The position numbers and the translations under genes are program-made. DNA of 37,736 nt from a virus (taxonomy: Duplodnaviria; Caudoviricetes): IMG/VR virus record IMGVR_UViG_3300036805_000228, positions 1-37,736 of that record; one strand, given 5' to 3'. The notes under the pieces are model-generated. The model worked only from the letters and a program-made list of their open reading frames with translations, was not told the origin of the DNA and did no database searches. Positions 1 through 25,601 of this stretch are shown piece after piece. The first letter of the stretch is position 1, and every line of letters starts with the position of its first letter.

Positions 1-480
1 AACAGCTCGGTGACCCCGGCGCTCTTGCGGCTGCCGATGGATCAGGTGCGGTCGGCGCTGGGCAACATGACCAACAAGTACAAGAAATTCAAGATCCAGA
101 TGACGGTGGGCCAGCGGGCGGCATACGAGAATCTTGCCGGCCAGCAGACCGCCATCATGTCGACCAGCGGCAAATTCTCCGCGTTCGATCTTCTCTTCGA
201 CGGCGATGCCTCGGTAGCGGGCAACGTCATCATCGAGAACATTCACGCGCATGCGCAGCGGATCGACTACTTGAACCTTGAGCGGTGGGGCAAGATCAAG
301 TGGGGCAACCCGCCATTCTGGTTCGACTCTGAGGGCCGCAAGGTCTTCCAGCAGGTCGGCACGAATGGTCAGATCACGTCCGGCGCTGCGTCGTTCCTGA
401 TCGACACGGTGCAGTATTACACCGACAACCCGAAGGCCCAGAGCACGCTCTACAACGTGCGGCAGCCGGTCGGCTACTAG
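1..480 (+). CDS. Major capsid protein, C-terminal part (5' truncated by the window)
   Basis: Frame is open from base 1. Ends ...RIDYLNLERW...QYYTDNPKAQSTLYNVRQPVGY, resembling the (C/T)xNPxA-type C-terminus of HK97-fold podoviral capsids. Lies upstream of adaptor/tail genes and is followed by a hairpin. Confidence 0.7.
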   Translation, partial: NSSVTPALLRLPMDQVRSALGNMTNKYKKFKIQMTVGQRAAYENLAGQQTAIMSTSGKFSAFDLLFDGDASVAGNVIIENIHAHAQRIDYLNLERWGKIKWGNPPFWFDSEGRKVFQQVGTNGQITSGAASFLIDTVQYYTDNPKAQSTLYNVRQPVGY

Positions 481-7713: not shown

Positions 7714-7732
7714 AAGGGGGTATGCTCGCGCC

Positions 7733-8212
7733 ATGTTATGTCATTGCGGTTGCGGCGAAGAGACTCGACTCCCCTATCATCGCTATATTCGCGGTCACCA
7801 GAGGAAGCAGTCGCTTCGCCCCTATTACACAGTTGAAGACCGCGGCTATAGAACTCCATGCTGGATGTGGGCGCGCGCAATTCATGCGACTTACGGTTAC
7901 GGGGTTTGCGCACTGCGGCACGGGACGCGGAGGGCCCATCGCGCTTATTTCATCGACCGCTATGGACCGCTTCCCGACGGGAAAGTACCGGACCATCTCT
8001 GCAGGCAGCGAGCATGTGTAAATCCCGAGCACATGGAGGCTGTTACTCAGGCCGTCAACGCTCAACGCGGATCAAGGGCCAAACTAACCCCGATGCTAGT
8101 CGTTGCAATTAGGGAGTCAGCTACTCGCGGCAGTTACCCGGAGGTTGCACGTAGATTCGATGTGCATCCCGCAACCATCTGCCGAATCGTCCAGGGGAAA
8201 CGATGGGCCTGA
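7733..8212 (+). CDS. HNH homing endonuclease with C-terminal HTH
   Basis: CxCGCG N-terminus, CWMW, AHR, DHLCRQRACVNPEHM and a terminal HTH (EVARRFDVHPATICRIVQGKRW). Start reassigned to ATG 7733. Confidence 0.9.
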   Translation: MLCHCGCGEETRLPYHRYIRGHQRKQSLRPYYTVEDRGYRTPCWMWARAIHATYGYGVCALRHGTRRAHRAYFIDRYGPLPDGKVPDHLCRQRACVNPEHMEAVTQAVNAQRGSRAKLTPMLVVAIRESATRGSYPEVARRFDVHPATICRIVQGKRWA

Positions 8213-8640: not shown

Positions 8641-8681
8641 AATAGCGGTGCCGCACACAGCGAGCCGTGGAGGGCTCCCCG

Positions 8682-9194
8682 ATGGACCTGATTGCGCAGG
8701 CCGCGACACCGCTCGCCCCATCCTATCGCGAGATTCAGCTTAGCCAAGGCAAAGTAGCAATTGTTGATGCCGATGACTATGAAGGCCTAGCTGCCTTTAA
8801 GTGGTACGCGAAAAGAGGCGGCGCTTCCAAAAATCGCTGGTATGCCACAAGAAATTCCCTAAAGCACGAAGGTATCGGCCGGACTATCCCAATGCACCAA
8901 GCCATCATGGGCACGCCTCCCGCGCCGGGGCTCACCGTGGATCATCGCGATCACGAGGCGACCCTCGACAATCGCCGCAACAATCTGCGATGGGCGACCT
9001 GCGGGGAACAAATGCGCAACCGAGGCAAATTCTCTAATAACACGAGTGGCTACAAAGGCGTGTATTGGCACAGCGCGGCGAGAAAATGGCGGCCACTTCT
9101 CGTCGTAGATAAACGTCGTATCAGTCTTGGCCTCTACGCGACGCCCGAAGCAGCCTATGCCGCGCGCTGTCAGGCCATTGCGCGACTCGCATAG
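8682..9194 (+). CDS. HNH-AP2 homing endonuclease
   Basis: LSQGKVAIVDADD, VDHRD...LDNRRNNLR (HNH), NTSGYKGVYW...LGLYATPEAA (AP2). GGAGGG SD before ATG 8682. Confidence 0.92.
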   Translation: MDLIAQAATPLAPSYREIQLSQGKVAIVDADDYEGLAAFKWYAKRGGASKNRWYATRNSLKHEGIGRTIPMHQAIMGTPPAPGLTVDHRDHEATLDNRRNNLRWATCGEQMRNRGKFSNNTSGYKGVYWHSAARKWRPLLVVDKRRISLGLYATPEAAYAARCQAIARLA

Positions 9195-9438: not shown

Positions 9439-10026
9439 TGCGTTGTGAGGGGGTGCCTTATCGGCGGTGATGCGGGTACCAATGCGGCGAAATCAGAGAA
9501 CACCGATAGCACCAACTGGGAAAACTCCGGCGTCGGCAGCTATAACGCCGATCTGGGCAGTTACATGAGCAACGTCAATAGTGCTCTGGCTGCCGGCAAT
9601 CCCTATCAGTCGACCGCTTATAAAACCTCGCAGAACCTCGAGACCTCGGGCGCGATGAACGCGGCCGATACCGCCGCCAAGGCAGCCACGCGCGGCGCGG
9701 CGCTGCGCACTGGCGAGAACGCCGCGGCGGTCAATCCGAGCACTTCCGAGAATGCGCTTGCCGCGCAGCGCACGCAGGACACCTACAACGCGACCCGCGA
9801 CACGGCGAACGATCAGGCATGGGAGCAGGAGAAGCAGGGCCTCATGGGCCAGCAACTCGCCGGCGCGAACTCGCAGGCTGCAGCCAATGCGAACTATGGC
9901 CAGCAGCGCAGCTCGGCCACGCAGGGACTTCTCTCGCAGCAGGAGCAGGAAGACCAGATGTGGGCAGGCCTCGGCACTGCGGCCATGGGCGACCTCGGTA
10001 AAGGACTCACCGCGGCTTATACATAG
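9430..10026 (+). CDS. Putative ejection (DNA pilot) protein, P22 gp7 / T7 gp14-like; true start uncertain (possibly 9460)
   Basis: A/Q/N/S/T-rich helical sequence with a G/A-rich hydrophobic C-terminus; first of a series of ejection-type genes. Confidence 0.6.
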   Translation: MSSCVVRGCLIGGDAGTNAAKSENTDSTNWENSGVGSYNADLGSYMSNVNSALAAGNPYQSTAYKTSQNLETSGAMNAADTAAKAATRGAALRTGENAAAVNPSTSENALAAQRTQDTYNATRDTANDQAWEQEKQGLMGQQLAGANSQAAANANYGQQRSSATQGLLSQQEQEDQMWAGLGTAAMGDLGKGLTAAYT

Positions 10027-10037
10027 GAGCACTCGAA

Positions 10038-11462
10038 ATGCCACCAACGGTGCCTTTTGTCGCCGACGAAGAAGATCAGGACGACCCGGCAAACGACCTG
10101 TACAGCGGTCCCGCGCGCGGCAAGGATGACGACGCGAACGATGATGACGCGAACACCGGCGCACAGCCGCACGGTGCCTCTGGCAAATTCGGTCCCAGCG
10201 GATCGGGCAAAGACGACGGCTCTTCTGCCATGCCCGGCCCATCGACCGCCGTTTCGGCAGATGCCGACGAGCAGGCCTTAGTCGCGCCGAAATACACGGC
10301 GCCCGACCGCACCGCGCTCAACGCCGCGCAAAGCAAGCTGACCAGCGACTCTGCCGCCATCAACCGGGCGGAGTATAAGCCGAAGTGGTATGACCGCCTG
10401 CTCGGTGGCGTTGCCGGCGGACTGAGCGGTGACGTGGAAGGCGGCCAACAGGTCACCAACCGGCGCCTCATTGGAGCGCAGAAACAGCAGGCGGCGAACG
10501 TGGCCGCTGATACCACGGCGCTGCAGGCGGAGCAGGGTAAGATCGCCGGCCAAGATCAGGACTTCGAACACCAACTGCAAGGCCTTCATGGCCAGGTGGC
10601 AGCGGCGAACGCAAACTCGCTCACCGGCGAGCGAGCCGCCAAGGCGGAGAAATACGATGCGGCGATCGACCCGCAGTCCATCCATCAGGGCGACGATGGC
10701 CAATGGATCGGCACCACCTACGGTGGAAAGCAAGTACCAACCGCGCAGCCGAAGTGGGCAGCGCCAAAACCGCCGCCGACGCCGAAGACCTATGAGGAGC
10801 TGGTCGAGGCGTCGAAGGACCCGCAATACAAGCCCGAACAGCAGAAGGCCTTCTCCGATGCGGCCAAGCAGATCGAGTCCAAGGAAGTGAAGAAGTTCTC
10901 GGCCACGGCGCCGCGGCCGAGCGAAGGTGAAGTCCAGTATGGCGACTGGAAGAAGGCATTCCAGCAGCAGAACGGCCGACCTCCCAACTCAGACGAAATC
11001 AACGCGTATCGGCGCGGCGGCCAGGGTGGCGAGGGTGGCGTTAACAAGACGGATTACAAAAACCCGGAGGAAGCGCGGAAGGCAAAGGATACCGCCTTCA
11101 CCACACAGCAGAATAATTACGACATGGCGCGCCGGCGCATCCTCGCGAGCGACTCTTCAGCGGCGGATAAGCAAAAACAGATCGCGGATCTCGACCAGCA
11201 GAACAACCAGGCCAAACAGACCATTCAGTCGGACTTCGAATCCTCGCTGCGCCAATTCAACCCCAGCCGCGGCCAGGTCGGCTCGCCAGCGCGGCAGGCG
11301 CCACCGGCAGGTGGCCGGCAACAGCCGATCATCGCGCCGAAGAGCGGGCACCGGCTGGCCATCGGGCAGCAGGTCAATGTCCCCGGCAAGGGCATGCGCT
11401 ACGTCACCGGGTACGTCAATGGCAAAGTGCAGGTAGACACGAAGCCACCCGCGAGAGGCTAG
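10038..11462 (+). CDS. Putative ejection / internal virion protein (474 aa)
   Basis: AGGAG SD; low-complexity D/Q/A/P/K composition; 'KPKWYDRLLGGVAGGLSG' motif; coiled-coil segments. Confidence 0.6.
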   Translation: MPPTVPFVADEEDQDDPANDLYSGPARGKDDDANDDDANTGAQPHGASGKFGPSGSGKDDGSSAMPGPSTAVSADADEQALVAPKYTAPDRTALNAAQSKLTSDSAAINRAEYKPKWYDRLLGGVAGGLSGDVEGGQQVTNRRLIGAQKQQAANVAADTTALQAEQGKIAGQDQDFEHQLQGLHGQVAAANANSLTGERAAKAEKYDAAIDPQSIHQGDDGQWIGTTYGGKQVPTAQPKWAAPKPPPTPKTYEELVEASKDPQYKPEQQKAFSDAAKQIESKEVKKFSATAPRPSEGEVQYGDWKKAFQQQNGRPPNSDEINAYRRGGQGGEGGVNKTDYKNPEEARKAKDTAFTTQQNNYDMARRRILASDSSAADKQKQIADLDQQNNQAKQTIQSDFESSLRQFNPSRGQVGSPARQAPPAGGRQQPIIAPKSGHRLAIGQQVNVPGKGMRYVTGYVNGKVQVDTKPPARG

Positions 11463-12240: not shown

Positions 12241-15200
12241 ATGCCAGATACCGCAACCATCACGCTCGACCCGTCCGAGGTTCAGGAGGCCAGCAGCAGT
12301 TCTGCCGTGCCCACGCTCGACCCATCCGAGGTCGCCGACAATTCGGCGCCGACGATGTCAAAAACCGAAGCCTCCGCCGCGCTCGACCAGTATTCCGGCA
12401 ATATGGGCAACCGCCCGGTATCGCGGCCGGCCGGCACACCCATGCCGCAGTTCACCCCGCCCAGCCAGCCACTTGATGCTGCGTCCCAGGCCTTCGAGCA
12501 GAACGTCGAGGCGTTGCCCGAGCAGGAACGCACCGAGTTCCAAAACGCAGCGCCGGCACCGAAGACCATCGCCGAGACGGCTAACTATCGTCCGCAATTC
12601 GCGCTTACCGGCGTGCATCCCGGCAACATCACCAAACCGGCCCAGCCAGCCGCGCCGAAGATGCAGACTTCCGCAGAGCGTGCCGCCGCGGCGGTCAGCC
12701 AAGACCCGAATGTGCGCTTTGGGCGTGCGGCGATCGGCACCGGCCCGGCAGTCCAGACACCGGTGGGCGCGGCAGTCCAATCGGCCAAGACCGGCGCGTC
12801 CGAGATGAAGCAGGGCCTCGATATGCTCGGCCCCGACTTCGCGCCGAACTCCGACCCGAAGCAGTTAGCCGTCGGCTACACCCATCTCATGAATGGCATC
12901 ATGACGGCGACCGGGCCGGAGGTCACCCTCGCCATGGGCGAGAATCCCTGGCCGTTTATCAAGGGTATGGTCACCGGCGCGATCACTGGCGAGGCTTCGA
13001 AGAAACTGGTCCAGGCAGCCGGTGGCTCGCCCGAGTATCAGGAGCTTGCGAAAACAGCTGGCTTCTTCCTGCCGACCGTGGCCGGCGCGCTTACCGGTGC
13101 CCAAGGCATGCTCGAAACCCGTGGCGTCACCACGCGCGGCACGGCCGAGGCCTTTGGCGGAGGCGCGAAGGGCGGATTCGAGGTCGATCCCTACACGGTC
13201 AAGGTAGCCGGGCGCGTGGGACGTACCGGCATCGGCGCCGAGTTCGAGCGCTTTCCCGGGGCCAAGGCGCAGCGCGCGGCCAACTACGGGCAAGAGGCTG
13301 CGCCACCGCCGCCCGATCCCGCCATGCAGCAGCATCAGGCGGATACCGCTGCCGCAGTGAAGGCGCTCACCGATGGCGCTGCGGCCGATGCGAATGCCGC
13401 GCGCCAGGCTGCCGGCGTTCCGCCACCGCCGCCACCGAAACCACCGATGCCGGCCGGCATGGATCAGGGCGAACTGCGCCCGGCGGTCGTCTCTAATCTG
13501 GCCAAGATGGTGCAGATAGCGCCACCCCAGATGCGCGCTGGCATGTTCCTCGAAGCGCACGCGCAGCTTGCCGGCTGGCTGGGCACGCAACGTACGGTCA
13601 TCCTGCCCGACGGCAAGATGCAGGTTATCGACTCGCCCAAGAAGGCCGAGACGGTCGCGCAGGACATCCTCAACAACGAGGTCGAGCGCCATCAGCAGGC
13701 CCATCAGGACATGCTCGACCAGCGGGCAGAGCAGCAGAAGCAAGCCGAAGAGCAGGCGAAAGAGGAAACCGAGCAGGCAGCCTCACAACCGAACGAAAAA
13801 GGGGAAGAGGAGAATCCGCTCCTCAACCGGGCCAAGACCATCCTCGCCGCCAACCAGGATGCGCCCCCGGTACGGCAGGTTGCGCTCTTGCAGCGCCAGC
13901 TTCGCGTCGGGCCAGGATTGGCTCAGCAGCTTCACGCCAGGGTCACCCAGGCGCTCCAGGTGCCGGGAACCGGCAACATGGTCGGCTCTTCAACCCACCC
14001 CGTCACCGAAGAGCCGCGCGAGCAGATCGACCAGCAAATCGCCTCGCTGGCTGGTGGCACGGTGCCGGTGGTTCATTTGCCCGAGGGAACGCAGTACCGT
14101 CCCGCGATCCCGCCGGGCATGAAGATGATTCGCGTCTCAGGCGATGCGCCGGGCGCGGGCATGTACCTCTACAATCCCGCCAAGATTCAGGCTGCGGCGA
14201 TCAAGGAAGCCGCCAAGAACGGCACCCACGGCGACCTGCTCGGCCACATCGCGCAGAAAGAGGACATTCCCGGCATGAAGGTGCCGGCGGTGCTTCAGGC
14301 GAAAGCAGCCGATGGGACACCGATTCAGGAGTCGGTCGTCGACGCAGCCGACCCGGCGATGGTGCGTGCCCAGGCCGAGGCGCTGCGCGAGCGGCATCCT
14401 GGCGCAGCCGTCCAGGCGCGGCATCCCAAAGCGGCCATCAACGAGCGCGATCACGCACTGGCCCGCTCGGCCACGAACGGCGGAGACATTTTCGATCACA
14501 TCGCGCAACAGCGAGGAAAGGAGGAAAGCCATGCCGAAGTACGCAAGCAGGCAGCAGGAGAGATGGGCCAACAGCCCAACGGGCCGGAGGGAACTGGGAC
14601 CGGCGGAAGTAGCGAAACGGAACGCGGCCAGCAAGGGCGCGAAGCTACCCGCCAAGGCACCGGCGCGGAGGAAGTAGCAACCCATGCCCAAGGGGCGGAA
14701 GGAGGTCGCGGAGAGCCAGAGCGGGCGGGGCAGTCGGGAAAGGCTGCCCCGGCCAAATACGATTACGGCAACACGCAAGCAGATATTCCGGCAGGGAGCG
14801 ACGCGGCGAAAGCTCTGGCTGCAGCGCGGAGCCGCATCGACAAAGCTGACCTCGCGCCTACTTCCCACGGTGGCAACGATGAGGGCCTGGAGACGGAGCC
14901 GCACATCACGGTGCGCTATGGGATCAAGGGCGAAGACACCGCTGGTATCCGCGCGTTCCTCGAGAAGCAGGCGCCATTCGAGGCGACTCTCGGGGCGAGC
15001 GATGCCTTCCCTCCAAGCAAGTCGAGCGACGGCACCGCGCCGATCATTGCGCCAGTTGAGTCGTCCGATCTGCGTCGCATCGAGGCCGAACTCGACAAGC
15101 ATGGCGATTTCATCGACCGCACTTTTCCCGAATACAAGCCCCATGCAACGATCGCCTATGTGAAACCGGAGGCCATCGACAAGTACAAGGGGATGCCAGA

Positions 15201-18200
15201 GACGAAGGGCAAGACCTTCCTGGTGCGCTCTATCAGCATTTCCAAGCGCGATGGCAGCACGGAATCCGTTCCGCTCCACGGCGAGCGCCGACGGGACACA
15301 GCAGAACGCCGGCGCATTGCCGAGATGTCGCCCGAGGAGATGCGCCGCGAACTCCTTACATCGGACAAGACCGGGCTGCCCAACCGCCGCGCCTTCGAAG
15401 ATGCCGAGCATGCAGCGCCGGCCAAGGCGATCGCCATGTCGGACGCCGACGGGCTGAAGGCGTTGAACGACCGGTACGGCTACGCAGCCGGCGACCAGCT
15501 ATTGAAAGCCAAGGCTGAGGAGCTGCAGGCGGCCGGGGTCGAGGCCTACCACGACAAGGGCGACGAGTTCCTTTACCGTGGGGAGTCTCCGGAGGAATTG
15601 AGCCGCAAGCTCGAGGTCGCGCGCGAAGGCCTGCGCAACCGCGAAATTGAAGTCACGATGAAGGATGGCACCGTTCGCCGGTTCAAAGGTGCTGACTTCA
15701 GCTATGGAATAGGGAAGGATGCCGATGCCGCAGAATCCAAACTCAAGCAGCACAAGGCCGAGCGGGAAGCCAGCGGCGAACGCGCCCGCGGAGAGCTTCG
15801 CGGCATTCAAGAAACTGGACCCGAAGCAGATCGCAGACGTGAAGGTGCTGCCGAGAAAGCGCCGCTTGCCAAAGGTGACAGGGGCATCCGATTCAGGGAT
15901 GACCACGGTGTCGAACGAACTGGCACAGTCCTCCACACCAACGACCGCATCACCCGCCTACGACTGGGAAGCGGCGCAGAAAACACAGTAAAGAACGCGG
16001 ACGTCATCGGCGCGCGACCGATTCCCCATGCCGGCGAAGTGGGCGAGCTCCACTCGTCGCAGATGGAGCGGTCCCCAAAAGACTTCCAGTACAAGGTCTC
16101 GAACATCGGCGAGGGCGGCGTCTCGAACCTGCTCAAAGGCAGCGAGTGGAATCGCGACCTCTCGGGCATCGTCTCCGCCTGGCGCGACCCGGCCACGGGC
16201 AAGGTCTACGTGGTCAACGGACACCACCGCCATGAGCGCGCCGAGGCGACCGGTGGCCAGAACCTCGCAGTGCGTATGCTCGATGTCGACAACCGCGAGC
16301 AGGCACGCGCTGTAGGCGCGCTGCAAAACATCGCTGAGGGCCGCGGCACGGCCATCGACGCGGCCAAGTTCATGCGCGATTCAGGCATGACGCTCGAGGA
16401 CCTGGAGAAGCGCGGCATCTCGATGGGCGAAGCCACGGCGCAGAACGGCGTGGCGTTGGCCCGGCTCGACCCCTCGATCTTCGAGCAGGTAGCCATCGGA
16501 AAGCTCTCCGAGCGCAAGGGCGTCGCCATCGGGCGGGCGACCGACAACGCGGCTACGCAAGAGGCCATTGTCAAGATGATTGCCAAGGCTGAGGCGCGCG
16601 GCCGGCATGTGAGCGAGGGCGCAGTCCAGGAGCTTGCCCGCTTTGCTGCCAGCGCCGGAGAAACCGAGCAAACCGTCGAATCGCTCTTCGGAAACCGGGT
16701 CGAAACGCAGAACCTTGCCTTAGAGAAGGCGGACGTATCGGCATACATCCAGAAGCAACTGCGCCAGGAGAAGACGATATTCGGCGCCGTCTCAAGCGAG
16801 GCGCGAGCGAAGACGCTTTCCCGAACCGGGAACAGGATCGAAGCCGCCAAGAATGCGGCCGAGGCGACTGCTGCAAGCCAGGCGCTCGAGGTGTACGATC
16901 GGCTGAGCGCGCGACGTGGCCCGGTCGACGACGCGCTGAATGCCGCAGCCAAGGACATCGCCGATGGCAAGCCAGCCAACAACGCCAAGCAGCGCGCCTA
17001 CGAAGCAGTCCGCGCCGCAGTACGCGAAGCTCTCGGAAGTCTCGAAGCAGAAGGTACTGGGCGAGTTCAGCCGGATACAGGGCGAGGAGCGGAAGCGCAA
17101 GAAGAAGGACGACTCTCAGCCCAAGAGCTAGAGGACGCCGGCCAGTCCGGCATTTCGTTTACCCCTGAAATTCAATCTCTGTTCACGCGCGACCGTGGGC
17201 CCGTTTCCCCACGCGACGCCACGCCCGAGCAGCAGGCCAGGGCGCAGCGGCTCACCACCTCCGACCCGAAGTTTCCCTATCTCGATCGCGCCGGCGTCGC
17301 CAAGCTCTACCAGCAAAACCTGCGCCGCGCCGTCACCGAGCCGGAGACGCCGACCCTGCCCGGCCTCGAGCAGCACGTCGAAGCGCATACCCGCTCGGCC
17401 GAGGAAGTCTCTGCTGAAGCGCTCAAGCAATCGGGCGCCAAGGACATCTCGAGCGCGGCCGGTCGTATGGAGCGCGACGCGCCGTTGTTCCGCGAGAGTG
17501 GGGCGAGTGAGCAGGGTGCGCTCTTCACCAAGCCGAAGCCACCGCAGCCGGGTGCCGGGCAGCAGGCCATTAACTTCGAAGTGCCACAGGGTTTCACCGA
17601 ACACCCGGTAGAGAAGCGAACGACCTACTATCGCGACGCCGAGCGCGCGAAGAACTTCTCCCTTAACTGGAATTTGAGCCATGCCCGCGCTATCGTCCAT
17701 GCGGCGGCCGAGGGCGGGGCACCGGTAGTCGAACTCAACCCGCACGCCTATCAGGCGATCAACAAGATCATTCAGGCCAGCCGAAACATGGCGCTTCCGG
17801 ATTGGGGCGGATGTTACTTTACGGCAGACTCAGCCCGGCGTCTCGAAGCGCAAATTGAGGAGCATTCCCAAAAGGCGCTGGGTGCTGGCGACGATCTCCT
17901 CACGGCTTTGCGCAGCGGCCGCGCGCCCGGAGGCGGAATCATCCTGCTACGCGGTGACATCGGCCAGAACGGTGCCCGCGAAGAACTGGCGCACTGGTGG
18001 TTCGACCAGAACATTCAGCGGTCGGGCGAGGCTAGAAACATGGCCGATGCCCTAGTCGCGAGTCCGGTCATGCAACTCGCCATCCGGCAACTCATGCTGC
18101 AGGGCTATCCCATCAAGCAGATGTCCGATGTCTTCCTGCTCAACGAAGCTATGGCTAAGACGCTGGCCGATGCCGGTGGCGAACTCATGCCGCTGCGCTC

Positions 18201-21200
18201 CGAAGACTACCGGCTGCTGCTGAATCAGGCGCTGAATCACTTACAGCGGGAGATGACCACAGTTACCTTTAGACAGGCGCTCAACGCTTTGCCCGAGGTT
18301 TCACCCGCGGCGCGTGCAATCATAGACGCCTGGAGGCAGCGCAATGATGACCTCGGACGGCAGTCACTTCCGACCACTGGAACGGCCGAATCAGAAAAAG
18401 ACCTCTCCCATACTAGAGGCAATAGCGAAGGCAGCTCGCGCCCTCCGCCAGAAGGGGCAGACGCCGGTCTTCTTTTCACGCCCCAAAGGCAGTCCGCAGA
18501 ACCCCGAGGGCGAGACGAAGTAGGCTTCGGCGCGACCGCCGATGGCATCTCGCCCGAGGCCATGAGTCGCGTGCCCGGCGCCGAGATGGCGCACAACGCT
18601 CGTGCCTACGTCGCCGACCAGACGGAGAAGGTCGCCGGCTCCCGCGAACTGTCCGAGGGTATTGCCAAGCTCGAAAAGCAGTATGAAGCCGACGTCATCC
18701 GCGCCAAGCAGGCTATGGAGTCGATGCCCGGCAAGGCGGCCGACCAGGAAGCCATCTATCACTTCCTCGAAAATCCCGACGAGACGCTGAATCCGTTGCA
18801 GGAGCAGATTCTCTCCGAGACCCTGGCCCCGGTGCAGTACGAATCCGAGCGCATCTGGCAGAAGCTCAACGCTGGCCAGATGCCGGTCGACAACTACGTG
18901 CACCGCATCGTGCGCGAGCGCGGTGGTCTGGTCGACCGCATCGTTCAATCGGGCGGCGTGCGCAAGCTAACCGGCAAAGGCAACATCTTCCGCAAGTCGG
19001 CCGGCGCGCTCAAGCGGCGCACCATGATGGCCATTCAGCATGACACCACCGGCGACCGCCAGGTCGTGTCCATCAAGAGCGGCCGCGTCACGCAGTGGAA
19101 GGATGGCGAGCCGCGCGATCGCGGCGACCTGCGCTCCGGGCTGACCACGCGCCTCGAAGACCTGGATCCGCATCTTGAGGCCGTTGCCAAGAACATTGTC
19201 GACACCGATCAAGCCATCCGCGATCTGCCGCGCAGTGATCGCCAGGCCGCAGCCGATAAGCTGCAGAAACAGATCGACAAACTCGAAGCGACGCTGTCGA
19301 CGGTCGCGGGACGCAAGGCGGAGGCAGGGAAGGCTGGCCAGCTTCCCGGCAATCTGCGTCGGGAAATCGCCTCGCTCACCGCCAAGCGCGACACCGTGCT
19401 TTCCACCCCGCTCGATCGCTACAAACTCAGTAGCCGCGGCGAGGACCAGATGCGCCGGCTGAAAGAGAAGCAGACGACCTACACCAACCAGCGCGCCCGT
19501 CTGCTCGAAAAAATTCCGACCGAGCACATGATGGACAAGCTCTGGAAGGACAAGGACGGCCGGAACTGGCGCATCACCCAGGCGACGACCAAGGAAATCG
19601 AAGCCCATACCGGGCTGCGCTACTACCACAACGCTGCGGCCAGCGTCTTTTCGAACTACCTGGAACTGCGCAAGGCGGAGCGCGCCTTCGACTATCTAGA
19701 GGCCTATAAGAGTTCGCCCGAGTTCGCACGCATCGCTGTCCATCCCTCGACCCAGGTCGCGACCGGCAAAGCAGTCGACGTGCCCGAGGGCTGGCAGACC
19801 ACGACTCTGCCCACCTTCGCCGGCTACTACTTCGAGCCGCACGTCGCCGAGGTCCTCGACCAGTATGCGAAGCAGCTCCAGGCGAAAGGCCCGAGCGTCT
19901 TCGAGAAGGTCGGCGCCTTCCTGCGGACCGCGATCTTCTTCAACCCGCTCATGCACATCCCCAACCTGCTCAGCCATTGGGCGGTGGAGAAGGGTGTCTC
20001 CGGCCTGGTCAACCCGTTCGGCTACGGCCGCAGCCTGCGCGCCCTAGTGAAAGCGGTCGACGCGGTGAGCCATCAGAACCAGGACTTTCTCGATGCGCTC
20101 GATGCCGGCGGGGCCCTGCAATCGCAGAAGTTCGAGACCCAGCAGTTTGCCGACGTCATGATGAAGAAGATTGTCGACGAGATGGAACGCGATCCCTCGA
20201 CACTGGCCAAGCTCGCCCGAGCACTCGGCTACGCGGACCCGCGAAAGCTGATTGCCGCAGTCTACAAATTCTCTGGCCGCGCGACATGGTACTCGAACGA
20301 CATCCTCTTTCTGCAGTCGGCCTACGAGAAGGTGGCCAAAGGCGTGACACTCGAAGCCGCGCTGCGCGAGACGGGCAAACACATCCCGACATACCGGCTG
20401 CCGGCGCGCATCTTCAACTCGAAGGCCATGGCGACGCTGATGTCCAATCCGAACCTCACCATGTTTGGCGCCTACCACTACGGCGCGCTGGCCTCTTACG
20501 GCAAAGCACTGCGCAGCGTCTTCGCTCCCGCGGCCGAAGCCGGAGAAAACGCCGAGGGCGACGGAGTGAACGAAGCCGGGCGGACCTCGACCGAAGAGCG
20601 CGCGCATGGCCTCGACATCATGGCCGCTATCGGGCTGATGACCTTCGTCGCGCTGCCGGCCATCGACCAGGTGTTGAAGCGGGTCACGGGAAACAGTCGC
20701 GCCGAGCTACGGCGCCCCGGTGCCTCGACCTTCGTCTATAACCTGACCAAGCTGATCGAGGGCGAGGAGACCCCGGTCGAGTTCGCTGAGTCGGTCGTTA
20801 CGCCGGCGGTGGGCACCAAGGCCGCGGTCGAGCTGGCCTTCAACCGGGATCTGCGCACCGGCCATAACCTTTACGACCCGCATGCGCCGGCGAAGGAACT
20901 GGGTCGGCAGGCGGGCGAATATGCCGCGTCGCAGGTGGGACCGCTCAACCAGATGCAGCGCGTGCAGCAGGGCAGCATGGACCTGCGAAAGATGCTTTAC
21001 CAGATGGTCGGCGTGGGCTTCCCGCTCCATGGTCCCGAGCGCCGCGCCATCGAAATCAACGCGGCCAAGCTCTCGGCATTGCCGCAAAAAAGCGCGGAGC
21101 GGCGGCATGGCATCCTGCGATCGCGCGCCTTGCACGATGCCTGGGATGGGGACTTCCGTGCGCTCAACAAGCTCGATGCCTCCGACGAGTTCACCGAGAA

Positions 21201-21408
21201 GGAAAAACGGGCTATCTGGAAAGAGTCGATGGAGTCGCCCTTGTTGGCGCAGACCCACAGCATGGGTTACGACGAAGTGCTTTCCGTCTATCACGCCCAC
21301 GGCGCCACGCCGGAGGAGAAGGAATTACTGCGCGAGGTACTCGATCGGAAGCTCGCCAACCTTATCAAGGGTGGCAAGGATGTCGAGGATGAAGAAAAAC
21401 CCGAGTAA
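12241..21408 (+). CDS. Giant polyvalent internal virion protein (3055 aa): FtsK-gamma-like, 2H phosphoesterase, GGDEF, SH3-like, ParB-like and degenerate zincin domains, helical C-terminal region
   Basis: PHITVRYG (His ~aa 888) and PHATIAY (~968); TGLPNRRAF / DADGLKALNDRYGYAAGDQLL / KGDEF (~1106); YVVNGHHR (~1326); REELAH (~1914). Occupies the slot of the largest podoviral ejection protein. Confidence 0.85.
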   Translation: MPDTATITLDPSEVQEASSSSAVPTLDPSEVADNSAPTMSKTEASAALDQYSGNMGNRPVSRPAGTPMPQFTPPSQPLDAASQAFEQNVEALPEQERTEFQNAAPAPKTIAETANYRPQFALTGVHPGNITKPAQPAAPKMQTSAERAAAAVSQDPNVRFGRAAIGTGPAVQTPVGAAVQSAKTGASEMKQGLDMLGPDFAPNSDPKQLAVGYTHLMNGIMTATGPEVTLAMGENPWPFIKGMVTGAITGEASKKLVQAAGGSPEYQELAKTAGFFLPTVAGALTGAQGMLETRGVTTRGTAEAFGGGAKGGFEVDPYTVKVAGRVGRTGIGAEFERFPGAKAQRAANYGQEAAPPPPDPAMQQHQADTAAAVKALTDGAAADANAARQAAGVPPPPPPKPPMPAGMDQGELRPAVVSNLAKMVQIAPPQMRAGMFLEAHAQLAGWLGTQRTVILPDGKMQVIDSPKKAETVAQDILNNEVERHQQAHQDMLDQRAEQQKQAEEQAKEETEQAASQPNEKGEEENPLLNRAKTILAANQDAPPVRQVALLQRQLRVGPGLAQQLHARVTQALQVPGTGNMVGSSTHPVTEEPREQIDQQIASLAGGTVPVVHLPEGTQYRPAIPPGMKMIRVSGDAPGAGMYLYNPAKIQAAAIKEAAKNGTHGDLLGHIAQKEDIPGMKVPAVLQAKAADGTPIQESVVDAADPAMVRAQAEALRERHPGAAVQARHPKAAINERDHALARSATNGGDIFDHIAQQRGKEESHAEVRKQAAGEMGQQPNGPEGTGTGGSSETERGQQGREATRQGTGAEEVATHAQGAEGGRGEPERAGQSGKAAPAKYDYGNTQADIPAGSDAAKALAAARSRIDKADLAPTSHGGNDEGLETEPHITVRYGIKGEDTAGIRAFLEKQAPFEATLGASDAFPPSKSSDGTAPIIAPVESSDLRRIEAELDKHGDFIDRTFPEYKPHATIAYVKPEAIDKYKGMPETKGKTFLVRSISISKRDGSTESVPLHGERRRDTAERRRIAEMSPEEMRRELLTSDKTGLPNRRAFEDAEHAAPAKAIAMSDADGLKALNDRYGYAAGDQLLKAKAEELQAAGVEAYHDKGDEFLYRGESPEELSRKLEVAREGLRNREIEVTMKDGTVRRFKGADFSYGIGKDADAAESKLKQHKAEREASGERARGELRGIQETGPEADRRREGAAEKAPLAKGDRGIRFRDDHGVERTGTVLHTNDRITRLRLGSGAENTVKNADVIGARPIPHAGEVGELHSSQMERSPKDFQYKVSNIGEGGVSNLLKGSEWNRDLSGIVSAWRDPATGKVYVVNGHHRHERAEATGGQNLAVRMLDVDNREQARAVGALQNIAEGRGTAIDAAKFMRDSGMTLEDLEKRGISMGEATAQNGVALARLDPSIFEQVAIGKLSERKGVAIGRATDNAATQEAIVKMIAKAEARGRHVSEGAVQELARFAASAGETEQTVESLFGNRVETQNLALEKADVSAYIQKQLRQEKTIFGAVSSEARAKTLSRTGNRIEAAKNAAEATAASQALEVYDRLSARRGPVDDALNAAAKDIADGKPANNAKQRAYEAVRAAVREALGSLEAEGTGRVQPDTGRGAEAQEEGRLSAQELEDAGQSGISFTPEIQSLFTRDRGPVSPRDATPEQQARAQRLTTSDPKFPYLDRAGVAKLYQQNLRRAVTEPETPTLPGLEQHVEAHTRSAEEVSAEALKQSGAKDISSAAGRMERDAPLFRESGASEQGALFTKPKPPQPGAGQQAINFEVPQGFTEHPVEKRTTYYRDAERAKNFSLNWNLSHARAIVHAAAEGGAPVVELNPHAYQAINKIIQASRNMALPDWGGCYFTADSARRLEAQIEEHSQKALGAGDDLLTALRSGRAPGGGIILLRGDIGQNGAREELAHWWFDQNIQRSGEARNMADALVASPVMQLAIRQLMLQGYPIKQMSDVFLLNEAMAKTLADAGGELMPLRSEDYRLLLNQALNHLQREMTTVTFRQALNALPEVSPAARAIIDAWRQRNDDLGRQSLPTTGTAESEKDLSHTRGNSEGSSRPPPEGADAGLLFTPQRQSAEPRGRDEVGFGATADGISPEAMSRVPGAEMAHNARAYVADQTEKVAGSRELSEGIAKLEKQYEADVIRAKQAMESMPGKAADQEAIYHFLENPDETLNPLQEQILSETLAPVQYESERIWQKLNAGQMPVDNYVHRIVRERGGLVDRIVQSGGVRKLTGKGNIFRKSAGALKRRTMMAIQHDTTGDRQVVSIKSGRVTQWKDGEPRDRGDLRSGLTTRLEDLDPHLEAVAKNIVDTDQAIRDLPRSDRQAAADKLQKQIDKLEATLSTVAGRKAEAGKAGQLPGNLRREIASLTAKRDTVLSTPLDRYKLSSRGEDQMRRLKEKQTTYTNQRARLLEKIPTEHMMDKLWKDKDGRNWRITQATTKEIEAHTGLRYYHNAAASVFSNYLELRKAERAFDYLEAYKSSPEFARIAVHPSTQVATGKAVDVPEGWQTTTLPTFAGYYFEPHVAEVLDQYAKQLQAKGPSVFEKVGAFLRTAIFFNPLMHIPNLLSHWAVEKGVSGLVNPFGYGRSLRALVKAVDAVSHQNQDFLDALDAGGALQSQKFETQQFADVMMKKIVDEMERDPSTLAKLARALGYADPRKLIAAVYKFSGRATWYSNDILFLQSAYEKVAKGVTLEAALRETGKHIPTYRLPARIFNSKAMATLMSNPNLTMFGAYHYGALASYGKALRSVFAPAAEAGENAEGDGVNEAGRTSTEERAHGLDIMAAIGLMTFVALPAIDQVLKRVTGNSRAELRRPGASTFVYNLTKLIEGEETPVEFAESVVTPAVGTKAAVELAFNRDLRTGHNLYDPHAPAKELGRQAGEYAASQVGPLNQMQRVQQGSMDLRKMLYQMVGVGFPLHGPERRAIEINAAKLSALPQKSAERRHGILRSRALHDAWDGDFRALNKLDASDEFTEKEKRAIWKESMESPLLAQTHSMGYDEVLSVYHAHGATPEEKELLREVLDRKLANLIKGGKDVEDEEKPE

Positions 21409-21436: not shown

Positions 21437-22021
21437 ATGCCCAGACGGAAAAAGACGAAGGCCGCGCCACCGCTGCGGCGCTCGACCGGACCGCCCATCA
21501 GCGAATTAGAGATGGCCTTTTGCCATTACCTGATGGGATCGGACGCCGAGGGCAACCGGCGCACCGCCGAGCAATGCGCGACCATGGCCGGGCTACCACG
21601 GGAGGACGCTCAGACGATTGCCGCCTCGGCCCGGGTGCGCAACTACTGCGATCAGTACACCAGCGAACTGGCGCGGCAGATGGCCTGCCAGGAAGCGATG
21701 CGGCGCGCCGACTACGAGCTGTCGCCGATGGCCATTGCCGGTGAGCTCTTTTACTTGCTGAAGCATGGCCGTGACGAGCGCGCCCGGGTGGCGGCTGGCG
21801 CGAAGCTGCTGGATTGGCTGGGTCCGCTCGACGACCGCATGAAGCGCGCGACCACCGAGGACCTGCGTTACTTTGCCGACCATGGCCATTGGCCGGAAGA
21901 GCGCCTGCTGCGCCAGCCGCGCCCCACTGCGCCAGCGCCGGGAACCACTGCACCCAACCCGGTGATTGACCAAGTGATCGAAGCGAATGCGCCGCGGCCG
22001 GCTATGGAGTTCGACTTTTGA
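21437..22021 (+). CDS. terS: Terminase small subunit (putative)
   Basis: HTH-like 'ELEMAFCHYLMG...TAEQCATMAGL' and 'RVAAGAKLLDWLG'; overlaps the TerL start. Confidence 0.7.
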   Translation: MPRRKKTKAAPPLRRSTGPPISELEMAFCHYLMGSDAEGNRRTAEQCATMAGLPREDAQTIAASARVRNYCDQYTSELARQMACQEAMRRADYELSPMAIAGELFYLLKHGRDERARVAAGAKLLDWLGPLDDRMKRATTEDLRYFADHGHWPEERLLRQPRPTAPAPGTTAPNPVIDQVIEANAPRPAMEFDF

Positions 22022-22776
22022 TTGCCGCAGATACCAACCGGACCAGCCCGCTACTTCGGGCGATGGCTCTGCGCACGCTCTCCCGCCGCACCCAGGAACT
22101 GGAGATTGCGACCGACACGCCGGCCGAAGATACCGAGGCGCACCGCGAACATACGGAGAACCAGGTTCGCCTGGCCATGGCCATTCCTGCCGGGTGGCTG
22201 CTGAAGCACACCAAAACATACAACGAGCACTGGGCCGATGAGGGCATGGCGTCGCCCGAAGAGCCGTTCCCCGACTATCCGTACCTGCACTACACGCTCG
22301 AAGTGCTCTCCGATCCCGAGGAGAAGGTCATCTGCATCGAGAAATCGCGCGACATGATGGCGTCCTGGCTGTGTGTCGGCTTCTTCACCTACATGGCGCA
22401 AAAGCGGCCGCGCACGCAGTGCGTCTTCCAATCGCAGGAAGAGGAGAAGGCCTTCCAGCTTATCGACTACGCGAAACAATTGTGGCGCTCGCAGCCACAA
22501 TATTTGCGGGATGCCTACCCACTCACTCGCGATGTGGACGACTTTGCCAAGGGCGAGCTGGCCTTCCTCCACGGCTCGGAATTGTTTGCCATCGCCGGTG
22601 GCGCGAATAAACTGCGCTCCTATCACCCATGGGGCTATCTCAACGACGAGACGACCTTCCAGGCCGAGGCCGGCAAGAGTTACGCGAACGCGCTCGCGGC
22701 CTGCAACAAGATCGTGCTCAATTCCTCGGCCGGCTCCGCGTGGTACGCAGATTTTCGCAATGACGTAAATGTGTGA
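22018..22776 (+). CDS. terL: Terminase large subunit, N-terminal ATPase part
   Basis: Walker A variant EKSRDMMASW, Walker B GYLNDE, coupling motif LNSSA. Ends shortly after, with no nuclease domain. Confidence 0.85.
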   Translation: MIAADTNRTSPLLRAMALRTLSRRTQELEIATDTPAEDTEAHREHTENQVRLAMAIPAGWLLKHTKTYNEHWADEGMASPEEPFPDYPYLHYTLEVLSDPEEKVICIEKSRDMMASWLCVGFFTYMAQKRPRTQCVFQSQEEEKAFQLIDYAKQLWRSQPQYLRDAYPLTRDVDDFAKGELAFLHGSELFAIAGGANKLRSYHPWGYLNDETTFQAEAGKSYANALAACNKIVLNSSAGSAWYADFRNDVNV

Positions 22777-23302
22777 ATATATAGGGATTATGGGCGGCAG
22801 AACGACGAAGGAATATCAGCGGGCATACGCGAAGCGCCGCAGCGTATACAAGGCGCAGAAGTCCCGGGAGTGGCGCGCTCGGCATCCGGACCCCAAGGCC
22901 TACTCGCGCGCTGCCGGCAAGAAGACCTATCAGCGCAACAAGGACTACTATGCCAAACGTAACCGCGCCTATTACCTGCGGATGATGGCCGAGAATCCTC
23001 GGTACAGTGCGGAGCTTCAGCGAAGATATCCAGAAGCCAGCAAGGTCGCGCGCCAGCGACGCATCGCGCGCATGGCAAACGCGGAGGGCAACATCACGCC
23101 AGCGCAGTGGCGCGCGGTCTGCACCCGTTACGGGAACAAGTGCCTCTGCTGTGGCAGGCGACCGCCCGAGGTCGGACTCACCATGGATCATGTCATCCCG
23201 ATTTCAAAGGGCGGCACTCACACGGAAGACAATATCCAGCCGTTGTGCGGCTCCTGCAACAGCAGGAAGCACACGCGGATTCTGGATTACAGGCCTTTCT
23301 GA
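22769..23302 (+). CDS. HNH endonuclease inserted between the terminase halves
   Basis: CLCC...LTMDHVIPISKGGTHTEDNIQPLCGSCNSRK; basic R/K/Y-rich N-terminus. Alternative start at 22790. Confidence 0.92.
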   Translation: MCEYIGIMGGRTTKEYQRAYAKRRSVYKAQKSREWRARHPDPKAYSRAAGKKTYQRNKDYYAKRNRAYYLRMMAENPRYSAELQRRYPEASKVARQRRIARMANAEGNITPAQWRAVCTRYGNKCLCCGRRPPEVGLTMDHVIPISKGGTHTEDNIQPLCGSCNSRKHTRILDYRPF

Positions 23303-24480
23303 TGAGCCAACGGATGGAGGAAGTTTGGCAAGAGCTCGACGAGCTAGAGCCGCAGTCGATGGTCGAAATTACCCGCGGCCTGGGCATCCGTCGCAAGGCA
23401 CCAGCCACGCTCGGCAGCCGCGGCATTCCGGTGCTCACCCTGCACTATTCGGCCGATCCGCGCCGCGACCCGGAGACGCCCGAGGGCGCGCTATGGGTGC
23501 AGCGGCAGCGTAACGACTACCCGTCGCAAGGTGACTGGGACCGCGAGATGGAAATCGACGACCTGGCCGGTGGTGGCGAGCTGCTGCTCAACCCCCTGCT
23601 CAAGGCCTACGCCAAGCTCATCATCATCACCGACCCGGCGTGGAAGCCGAACCCGCGCTGGGACTGCGTCGAAGGCTTCGATCACGGCGTCTCGAACGCG
23701 ACCGCCATGGTCAAGAAATACATCGACTTCAACGGTGACCGCTATTTATGCGGGGAATACTATAACTGGCGCCGCGACCCGCGCGGCCCGGATCCCGGAT
23801 GGTCGAACGAAATCTGGCAGAACGCGCCCGGCTTGAATGCGCTGCATGCCCTGCGCAAGCCGCGGTGGTGCTTCGCCGACCCGTCGATCTTCAATCAGAA
23901 GAGCCAGGCGCAGAAGGACGGGACCTTCGCCTTCGTGAATACCATCTATCGCGAGAATGGCGTCAAGTTCCTGCAATCCTACCCGGAGTCATTGACCCGC
24001 AGCGACGAGAGTTACATGACCCGGCTACGCGAGCACTGGGGTGGCCTGGATGTCGACGGTATGCGGCCAACGCTCTACATCGTCTGCCGCAACGAAACCG
24101 GATTCCGCCAGCCGGGCTTCCATCCCTACGACTGCCCGAATTTGCTTTGGGAGTGGCGGCGTCGCCGGCGTGTGGAATTGACCGACCGGCAATTGCTCAC
24201 GCGCAACCAGTCCGACCAGGTGGTGCAGAAGGACAATCACGCCTGCGACGCGGACAAGTATTGCGAGATGCCCTTGCCGCGACCGACGCAAAAGAGCGTT
24301 GAAGAGATATTCCAAGACACCATCGTCGGACCGACGAACAAGGCTCTCGCCGAGCGCGGGCAGCCACCGCTCAATCCAATGTCGCAGGCGATCGCGCAGC
24401 AGCGGTTCCTGGCGCTCGGCGCCGGGCAGAAGAAATCCAAGCAGGTCTCGATGCGGAACAAGGCGCGGATGCTACGGTAG
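23302..24480 (+). CDS. terL: Terminase large subunit, C-terminal part (lid plus RNase H-like nuclease; 392 aa)
   Basis: Start reassigned to ATG 23302 (TGATG overlap). LHYSADP, WDREMEID, GFDHG, ADPS, KDNHACDA terminase motifs. Confidence 0.85.
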   Translation: MSQRMEEVWQELDELEPQSMVEITRGLGIRRKAPATLGSRGIPVLTLHYSADPRRDPETPEGALWVQRQRNDYPSQGDWDREMEIDDLAGGGELLLNPLLKAYAKLIIITDPAWKPNPRWDCVEGFDHGVSNATAMVKKYIDFNGDRYLCGEYYNWRRDPRGPDPGWSNEIWQNAPGLNALHALRKPRWCFADPSIFNQKSQAQKDGTFAFVNTIYRENGVKFLQSYPESLTRSDESYMTRLREHWGGLDVDGMRPTLYIVCRNETGFRQPGFHPYDCPNLLWEWRRRRRVELTDRQLLTRNQSDQVVQKDNHACDADKYCEMPLPRPTQKSVEEIFQDTIVGPTNKALAERGQPPLNPMSQAIAQQRFLALGAGQKKSKQVSMRNKARMLR

Positions 24481-24723
24481 TCGCTGCCGGGAAATGCCAC
24501 CATACGTATCGGCAAGGTGCGACGGCCTCTCCATCCAGTAGGGCAAGCCGTACCAAAACGGCGCTGCGCCCCATTCCACTTTCCTCCATTTGTTGATGTC
24601 AAGATAATCGACGCGCGGTTCAAGGGCGACAATCTCCGGCGCGACCGCAGACAGCGCGCGCACGGGCAGCACCTTCGCGGCGAGAACTGCGCTGGCGAGT
24701 TTGAAGAAATTGCGGCGGTTCAT
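24472..24723 (-). CDS. Small protein with a Tat (twin-arginine) signal and a capsid-like peptide (83 aa)
   Basis: MNRRNFFK, hydrophobic stretch, VRA cleavage-like site. RVDYLDINKWRKVEWGAAPFWY aligns without gaps to capsid residues encoded at 259-324. Confidence 0.75.
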   Translation of the reverse strand: MNRRNFFKLASAVLAAKVLPVRALSAVAPEIVALEPRVDYLDINKWRKVEWGAAPFWYGLPYWMERPSHLADTYGGISRQRLP

Positions 24724-24747
24724 GGTCGCCATCATTGCACACACAGA

Positions 24748-24780
24748 GGAAAGCCCGGCTTGCGCCGGGCCTTCCCTTTT
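24748..24780. terminator. Probable bidirectional intrinsic terminator at the strand junction
   Basis: 12-bp stem GGAAGGCCCGGC-GCAA-GCCGGGCTTTCC on the - strand (one G-U pair, GNRA loop); CTTTT tail on the + strand. Confidence 0.7.
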
Positions 24781-24803
24781 GCCACAGATGCAGTGCTCAC
24801 AGC

Positions 24804-25601
24804 TTACTGTGAGTGCTGTTCTCCCTGCTGCGCCTGTTCGCCCTCGGCGCCTTGCTGTCCCTGTTCACCCTCGGCGCCCGACTCGGCAGCGCCTTCGACC
24901 GGTGCAGCACCGGCATCGCCTTCCGGCAGACCGCGTTGTCGGCCGGCCGCTTGTGCCTGTTTAAGTAGCGCCTGAGAGCGAGCGGTCGGAGGATTGATGC
25001 GCTCGGCCACCACGCTGGCAGGATTCTCCGGCGTAGGCTTGGCCATGCCGCCTTGGGCAACTACGTCGGTGGCAGTGGCTCCCTGCGCCGGCACCAGCGA
25101 GTCTTTGACCGGACCGCGACCAGCCTGCCCGTGCGACTCGCGCTGTGCCAGAGCGGCAGCGACGGTTCCCGCAGCCTCGGTGTCGAGCACCATGGCCGGC
25201 AGGTCGATCGCCTCGGCCGCATCGGGCAGCAGGTCCGTCCAGTAGACCGATTCTCGTCCCGCCGTCACGCTGGCTGCGGTACCGTGATGCACCGGACCGG
25301 TTCGGGTGAACGCCTTCGACCAATCCGGGCTGCCCAGCATCCGGCGGTCGGGATTCGACAGATAGACGACGGTGAGATAGGGTTCGCCACTCTCGCCCAG
25401 ACGTTGCTCGTCGAGCGAGGAACTGCCGGTGACATAGGCCAGCCGGGCCATGGCCACGCCGTTCTCAATGACGTGAACGCGCACCACGTCGCCAACCTGC
25501 GGTGTCACGGGAGCGCTCTGTTCCGGTTGTGGGGTAAGTTCGGGTTCCGTAGGCTCGTTCGGAGGCGGCTGCTGGGGATCGACAGTTAGCGTGTTTTCCA
25601 T
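24804..25601 (-). CDS. Hypothetical protein (265 aa) with low-complexity termini
   Basis: GAAAGGA SD; globular core 'PQVGDVVRVH...RLAYVT' flanked by P/E/Q-rich tails. Confidence 0.75.
   Translation of the reverse strand: MENTLTVDPQQPPPNEPTEPELTPQPEQSAPVTPQVGDVVRVHVIENGVAMARLAYVTGSSSLDEQRLGESGEPYLTVVYLSNPDRRMLGSPDWSKAFTRTGPVHHGTAASVTAGRESVYWTDLLPDAAEAIDLPAMVLDTEAAGTVAAALAQRESHGQAGRGPVKDSLVPAQGATATDVVAQGGMAKPTPENPASVVAERINPPTARSQALLKQAQAAGRQRGLPEGDAGAAPVEGAAESGAEGEQGQQGAEGEQAQQGEQHSQ

Follow-up and report, generated by a model that had tools for sequence, protein, structure and literature searches.

A phage micro-protein joining a Tat-like leader to permuted major capsid segments: a candidate membrane-directed decoy for capsid-sensing defence

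Twin-arginine translocation (Tat) signal peptides (PF10518, TIGR01409) carry RRxFxK near the N-terminus, a hydrophobic stretch, and a basic residue before an AxA-like site. The same motif, with a basic residue, a putative hydrophobic stretch, and candidate AxA-like sites, is found in a micro-protein encoded by a soil phage, record IMGVR_UViG_3300036805_000228 (Duplodnaviria; Caudoviricetes), of which positions 1 to 37,736, the whole stretch analysed, are called the window here. Unlike known Tat substrates, the leader of the micro-protein scores under the curated cut-offs, and its passenger is a phage-encoded, 60-residue mosaic of capsid pieces with no predicted fold instead of a folded enzyme. 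DSAD1, the anti-DSR2 protein of phages SPbeta and phi3T, is likewise a small phage protein, proposed to act at the virion-protein site of a sensor (PMC11087589). However, DSAD1 is described as a steric competitor of the tail tube, and the accessible part of that report mentions no export leader; the micro-protein is built from the trigger's own sequence, and for it competition is only proposed. SaPIbov5 Ccm is a capsid-derived protein that interferes with capsid biology (PMC8569155; PMC5052747), namely a satellite-encoded capsid homologue that redirects and blocks the helper phage and takes part in making small capsids. The micro-protein, in contrast, has only 60 residues of permuted capsid pieces behind a membrane leader, and it comes from a phage that has head, terminase, and replication genes of its own.

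The capsid-sensing defences, such as CapRel SJ46 and Sau-Thoeris, are host sensors and not decoys, and they define the type of target that a capsid decoy would have (PMC13728456; PMC12578639). The HK97-fold major capsid proteins are the source of the three segments of the micro-protein, called A, B, and C, which cannot itself form that fold. The micro-protein lies outside the DSAD1 and Ccm families, and its working mode, if any, would be like theirs. No description of a fusion between such a leader and a virion piece was found in the open literature as judged from titles and the beginnings of abstracts, a scope beyond which most subscription papers lie. The function of the architecture is a prediction from sequence. 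The gene, its parts, and the capsid gene that they match are as follows.

24472..24723, minus strand: micro-protein gene, 83 amino acids (from homologues and a ratio of nonsynonymous to synonymous substitution rates, dN/dS, of 0.17)
24655..24723, minus strand: Tat-like leader, residues 1-23, with RRxFxK, hydrophobic stretch, basic residue, and V-R-A / A-V-A cleavage-like sites
24550..24615, minus strand: segment B, residues 37-58, equal to capsid 355-376 (numbering of the relative L002); strand, short helix, strand in the capsid model
24532..24549, minus strand: segment A, residues 59-64, equal to capsid 234-239; short helix after the inserted beta domain
24487..24507, minus strand: segment C, residues 73-79, equal to capsid 246-252; continuation of segment A
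1..480, plus strand: 3' end of the major capsid gene (HK97 fold, from the model of L002), in which 259-324 is the stretch matched by the micro-protein

The order of the segments is B-A-C in the micro-protein vs. A-C-B in the capsid. Approximately 43 of 427 capsid residues are retained, permuted within 83 amino acids, so a full-length HK97 fold is absent. The A-C junction has two extra residues in the window, while the homologue P0082 aligns to the capsid profile ungapped. An alternative start lies 12 nucleotides upstream at 24735, and the database entries begin these four codons earlier, giving 87 amino acids. The leader carries the twin-arginine consensus RRxFxK as RRNFFK at residues 3-8, and four of the five known homologues have RRNFLK, the fifth having been called without the leader part. 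It is called Tat-like here because it carries the motif but scores under the Pfam and TIGR cut-offs; its Kyte-Doolittle 15-mer peak is 1.6 with a Lys inside, and the V-R-A and A-V-A sites were picked by eye. Mean column conservation within the family is 0.80 for the leader and 0.68-0.86 for the cargo. The mature part of 60 residues contains four Trp, four Tyr, and one Phe. AlphaFold gave a predicted local distance difference test score (pLDDT) of 49 on an alignment of only six sequences, which is uninformative, and every match in the ESM Atlas was below 0.9.

The capsid protein is named by no family in Pfam, PHROGs, or NCBIfam, and a sequence search of PDB gave zero matches; hence, the capsid label rests on the fold. 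The capsid of L002, 81% identical to that of the window over the overlap, was modelled from 75 sequences with a pLDDT of 81.5. The model matched 7f38 in Foldseek with an E-value of 1.9e-10, the HK97-fold capsid VIA with Z 22.4 (root-mean-square deviation (rmsd) 4.1, 310 residues aligned), and HK97 itself (1ohg) with Z 15.9 (rmsd 4.1, 262 aligned). On this model, the window gene at 1-480 is an HK97-fold major capsid protein. Its part corresponding to segments A and C falls off the contig, so a second relative, L001, whose capsid is 98% identical in amino acids over the overlap, was used as a stand-in for that region.

A sequence-only reading of the window had aligned 24550-24615 with 259-324 of the capsid gene at 11 of 22 identical residues and 38 of 66 identical nucleotides, with seven of the eight identical residues other than Trp on different codons; all of these figures were reproduced. 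BLASTP of the pair gave an E-value of 8e-10. Against shuffled controls, which that reading had proposed as a possible refutation, the real score across the six window frames with the micro-gene's own locus masked was 91, whereas 300 shuffles averaged 45 and never exceeded 66. The same reading had compared the next segment with a GL...TYGGIxR motif located earlier in such capsids, and this second motif is real: GIPYW...G[LI]DR occurs in the capsids of L001 to L004, approximately 120 residues upstream of the first segment. The suggestion of two capsid fragments in swapped order also held, with residues 37-58 matching a later capsid stretch and residues 59-79 an earlier one. Residues 58-79 scored higher with the L001 capsid than 1,999 of 2,000 shuffles, and for the A-C stretch of the five homologues, 0, 5, 31, 0, and 0 of 2,000 shuffles reached the real score. 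All six family members match the capsid profile (E-values 6e-12 to 9e-5). The two segments lie at the 94th and 93rd percentiles of conservation among capsid windows (top 6-7%), part of which may be detection bias, since fragments are detected through conserved motifs. The donor capsid cannot be named, as the phage's own stand-in L001 ranks only 10th of 105 candidates, with a score of 91 against 97 for the top.

The five homologues, at 53-63% identity and with the same order of modules, emerged when sets of 5.8 billion and 1.84 billion proteins were searched. Only P0006 (L022, record G006) comes with DNA; none was found for P0004, P0005, P0081, and P0082 in metagenome, genome, and viral scans. 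The comparison of the micro-gene with P0006, one pair over 76 codons on which the whole estimate rests, gave a proportion of synonymous differences (pS) of 0.71 and of nonsynonymous differences (pN) of 0.30, a dN/dS of 0.17 (0.12 in the mature part), and a bootstrap pN/pS ratio of 0.28-0.60. The neutrally evolving or decayed remnant that had been named as a refuting outcome is thus not what was found. Synonymous sites between the micro-gene and its own capsid are saturated (pS 0.96), in line with the earlier statement that the copy is not a recent duplication and suggesting that it is old or came from another phage.

The distribution of the gene is uneven. It is absent from 38 capsid-bearing relatives, where all matches of the family profile fall inside the capsid gene; 12 of these 38 records are at least 90% complete, some of the 12 being distant phages, and six further loci did not form part of the set. 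In G006, whose capsid gene lies outside the record, the copy is found approximately 23 kb from the terminase slot that it occupies in the window, in an accessory cluster and overlapping an upstream stop codon. A scan of 401 host-family genomes detected no copy, a weak negative since prophages of the group are rare and no positive control gave a signal. A Logan contig spans 22800-25441 with zero differences and may come from the source sample, hence not being independent; run X2 leaves the middle of the ORF uncovered, which carries no weight either way. On this comparative evidence, the micro-gene is a real, optional gene under protein-level purifying selection, patchy and mobile.

Analogous open reading frames (ORFs) in other phages, whose absence had been proposed as a refutation, do exist. 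The complete relative G008 has an 89-amino-acid gene with an unrelated leader that scores 17.0 on TIGR01409, above the cut-off of 16.7, and carries the same A-C segment (score 59 vs. a maximum of 52 in 1,000 shuffles), fitting a distant capsid best. In addition, G008 has a leaderless ORF of 124 amino acids inside its structural operon (L090:6918-7301, minus strand), in which capsid 366-398 precedes a motif taken from around residue 70. A third ORF of G008, less well supported and also leaderless, is L092:41-337 (minus strand; 8 of 1,000 shuffles reached its score). Another ORF of G008, L091:15072-15539, looked capsid-like, and this was not confirmed.

When 42 of the 64 parts of the viral collection were scanned for the leader alone, 119 loci were obtained, with 110 distinct ORFs whose cargo differs widely. 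Three of the 110 match the capsid profile, namely P0006, L166 with the N-terminus of the capsid, and L244 with A-C, the last in a record that is 25% complete and shows no capsid gene. PHROGs was run on 75 of the ORFs, picked by eye for length and a plausible leader: eight match virion or packaging families (two terminase, one sheath, two head, and three tail collar or fibre, for two of which the best match has an unassigned function), two match only families of unknown function, and 65 match nothing. The class is thus wider than the capsid mimics first proposed: similar leaders also carry terminase, sheath, and tail pieces. Among these, L156:195-623 (minus strand) has a Tat-like leader in frame with a C-terminal piece of tail sheath (E-value 1e-19), and L152 from 601 onward (plus strand) and L216:96-323 (minus strand) have Tat-like leaders in frame with terminase ATPase sequence. 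The L152 frame stays open for 530 amino acids, so it may be a whole terminase behind a Tat-like leader.

The leader ORFs were also compared with the long ORFs of their own records in 25 of the 33 leader-bearing records of 30-80 kb, namely all 19 that are at least 90% complete and six chosen partly for capsid-like looks. Matches were found for 10 of 24 leader ORFs, 11 of 1,102 controls, and 0 of 480 shuffles; in the 19 unselected records, they were found for 7 of 18 leader ORFs vs. 10 of 907 controls (Fisher p 5e-9). The controls were generated by a crude ORF caller, with non-genes among them, three of the leader ORFs look mutually related, and two of the matches are marginal (E-values 3e-4 and 6e-4). 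The ten targets include four annotated major head proteins, one of them marginal in PHROGs (E-value 0.001) while passing the Pfam cut-off. A further target, homologous to another of the ten, resembles clusters in which a capsid family is present in 41%; others are two unannotated proteins of capsid size and two of 751-896 amino acids. PF17236 gave no name to the unannotated targets. By comparison across records, the design of a leader with a virion piece arose repeatedly and independently in unrelated phages. In record G062, a leader ORF (24086-24472, plus strand) and an adjoining leaderless ORF (24475-24915, plus strand) both copy the N-terminus of the major head protein of that record. L009, a fragment of an AT-rich large phage, shares only the leader and was dropped as a family member; its nearby ORFs at 10001-10441 and 10731-11132 have RRNF/KRNF leaders.

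The favoured explanation, with a probability of roughly 0.4, is that the micro-protein acts as a decoy for capsid-sensing host defence and is directed to the membrane. It would be expressed ahead of or apart from the late genes, before the real capsid is made, and its leader would be recognised by TatBC. The capsid-derived piece would bind a host capsid sensor but leave it inactive, since a piece of 60 residues would lack the second site or oligomer needed for activation. The complex would then be moved to the membrane by the leader and either held there or sent through; Tat can co-export a bound partner protein. Stalling would be likelier than clean export, as the unfolded aromatic passenger would export poorly; Tat substrates with exposed hydrophobic unfolded regions were described to abort late and cause growth defects (PMC13673990).

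Several observations are consistent with the decoy. Sensors have been argued to target conserved, hard-to-mutate capsids (PMC12578639), and the segments are among the most conserved capsid windows. That capsids set off defence is established: CapRel binds the major capsid protein (PMC13728456). In Thoeris, ThsB1 binds the capsid, and the V273A capsid still binds ThsB1 but fails to recruit ThsB2 (PMC12578639); binding is thus separable from activation, which makes a binding-only capsid piece conceivable. DSAD1, which is reported to occupy the tail-tube site of DSR2, provides the precedent of a competitor (PMC11087589). Furthermore, similar leaders carry other virion or packaging pieces, with the excess of own-record matches given above, and the patchy presence, shifting position, and shifting choice of segments fit an accessory gene in an arms race.

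Other observations weigh against it. The leader scores 15.4 bits on PF10518 against a cut-off of 22.7, the four homologues scanned with an intact leader score 16.5-21.3, all below the same cut-off, and TIGR01409 has no match for the window gene (G000) and gives 15.1 for the G006 copy (cut-off 16.7). Of the Tat signal first read from the letters, the RRxF motif, the hydrophobic stretch, and the AxA-like sites are visible, but the curated cut-offs are missed. No own-record match was found for 11 of the 18 leader ORFs, which together with the leaderless capsid-piece ORFs of G008 indicates that leader and capsid piece are separable. Conservation of the micro-protein follows that of the capsid site by site (rho 0.49, permutation p 0.002), and this correlation was rejected as firm evidence because rho falls to 0.28 (p 0.19) without the Gly, Pro, and Trp columns. 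A capsid peptide can itself trigger defence, as in the Lit/Gol system. The two Thoeris escape sites are approximately 60 Å apart on the folded capsid monomer, and a need for oligomerisation was the only trait common to the triggering capsids of one screen according to section 13 of a review (PMC13728456); short peptides may therefore go unrecognised. The accessible part of the HXS paper gives no support for a Tat-exported defence.

If the decoy is true, the phage would have a counter-defence that reuses the sequence of the trigger itself and is linked to an export route of the host, and the cargo segments would form a ready list of candidate sensor epitopes, making capsid recognition by bacterial sensors directly testable. 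An extension of it, possible but on the unlikely side, is a modular platform in which a reusable twin-arginine leader is fused repeatedly to digests of the most conserved, immune-sensed regions of a phage's own virion and packaging proteins (capsid, terminase, sheath, tail), so that the Tat machinery of the host would remove the matching sensors. Every cargo would in that case mark an epitope read by a bacterial sensor.

Among the rivals of the decoy, the strongest, itself unlikely, is an assembly poison: a peptide made in a lysogen or early in infection would swap into the capsid subunits of a superinfecting relative as these fold, and would anchor them at the membrane. The invariant residues correspond to near-invariant capsid positions (D357, W364, P373, W375, G234, P236, G249, and R252) typical of structural cores, and many capsids of the group are matched by the segments to a similar degree, the own stand-in being 10th of 105 and the G008 gene fitting best to a distant capsid. 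The relatives include proviruses, a stand-alone candidate promoter is present, and SaPIbov5 Ccm is a precedent of capsid-derived interference (PMC8569155; PMC5052747). However, the phage's own capsid would be hit too, as its segment B is nearly identical to that of the relatives and no self-immunity is apparent. The operon position of the G006 copy, overlapping the upstream stop, points to lytic-cycle expression, and the lack of a copy in the 401 host-family genomes is a further, weak objection given the rarity of such prophages.

Somewhat less probable still is that the leader is the active part, with the Tat translocase jammed or sequestered or the membrane stressed, and the capsid pieces serving as convenient hydrophobic unfolded cargo. 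This would suit a leader as conserved as its cargo (0.80 vs. 0.68-0.86), the broad variety of cargo among the 110 leader ORFs, the aromatic mature part (four Trp, four Tyr, and one Phe in 60 residues), and the late abortion and growth defects described for hydrophobic unfolded Tat substrates (PMC13673990), but it leaves unexplained both the strong preference for capsid or virion pieces and the independent reuse of segments A and C in G008 and L244. Either the poison or the jammer would still be an undescribed phage tactic.

A helper of the phage's own head assembly, which would recruit capsid subunits or a folding factor of the host by acting as an anchor in the membrane or an adaptor for chaperones, is improbable. 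It would account for the match to conserved segments of the own capsid and for the leaderless capsid-mosaic ORF within the structural operon of G008, but the gene is missing in the 38 capsid-bearing relatives, including the 12 that are at least 90% complete; its place in the window is away from the head operon and on the other strand, and the choice of segments differs between phages. A similarly small share is left to some other explanation. A functionless capsid remnant or chance match, to which the lack of a Shine-Dalgarno sequence at either start (likewise at 5 of 18 other starts) and of a confident fold (pLDDT 49 on six sequences) could point, is largely refuted and very improbable given that none of 300 shuffles reached the score, the order of the modules is preserved in five homologues of 53-63% identity, pS exceeds pN (0.71 vs. 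0.30, bootstrap ratio 0.28-0.60), and the comparison with the capsid shows saturated synonymous sites (pS 0.96).

The micro-gene is placed between two converging operons, with the following surroundings.

23302..24480, plus strand: C-terminal ORF of the split large terminase, left neighbour (label inferred)
24731..24741, minus strand: candidate extended -10 element, 7 nucleotides before the ATG, which would give a leaderless mRNA (a lead only)
24753..24770, both strands fold: hairpin between the converging late and leftward operons
24804..25601, minus strand: conserved 265-amino-acid protein, last gene of the leftward (DnaB) operon, right neighbour

The 3' end of the micro-gene and the terminase stop overlap by nine nucleotides in convergent orientation. 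The terminator hairpin noted earlier exists, with the micro-gene beyond it on the minus strand; it has a weak U-tract on that strand and is probably a bidirectional terminator. A scan with the sigma-70 consensus gave zero promoters for the micro-gene, and a Shine-Dalgarno sequence is absent at both of its starts, as at 5 of 18 other starts. The extended -10 pattern, which was defined after the site was seen, fits strictly at 1 of 1,152 ATGs of the window and loosely at three. Read-through from the leftward DnaB operon or a leaderless transcript could each express the micro-gene, and the separate expression suggested in the earlier reading is one candidate. In G002, G003, and G006, the next gene ends 73-78 nucleotides past the terminase stop, and six other records have different small minus-strand ORFs in the slot after the terminase. 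In G004 (L018), an integrase-like ORF and a tRNA-like end, read by eye, occupy the slot, suggesting an insertion hotspot.

The relatives of the window are phages of approximately 68 kb, some of them proviruses. The named homologues come mostly from Acidobacteriaceae bins (three of four names, the fourth being a Patescibacteria bin, and two of two contigs), from which an Acidobacteriaceae host is inferred. TatC is encoded in both of the two likely host genomes; this makes export possible and shows no more than that. In 13 of 13 records of the group, the large terminase is divided between two ORFs, and both are syntenic in all 13; the N-terminal one of the window (22018-22776) matches phrog_2, and an HNH gene (22769-23302) lies between the halves in the window. 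It is one of three HNH endonuclease genes in the late operon, the others being at 7655-8212 and 8667-9194. The window also encodes a protein of 3,055 amino acids (12241-21408), probably ejected with the DNA, that has a 2H-phosphoesterase domain (PF13563, residues 881-1005) and a GGDEF-like domain (residues 1043-1110) and may act on nucleotide-signalling defences.
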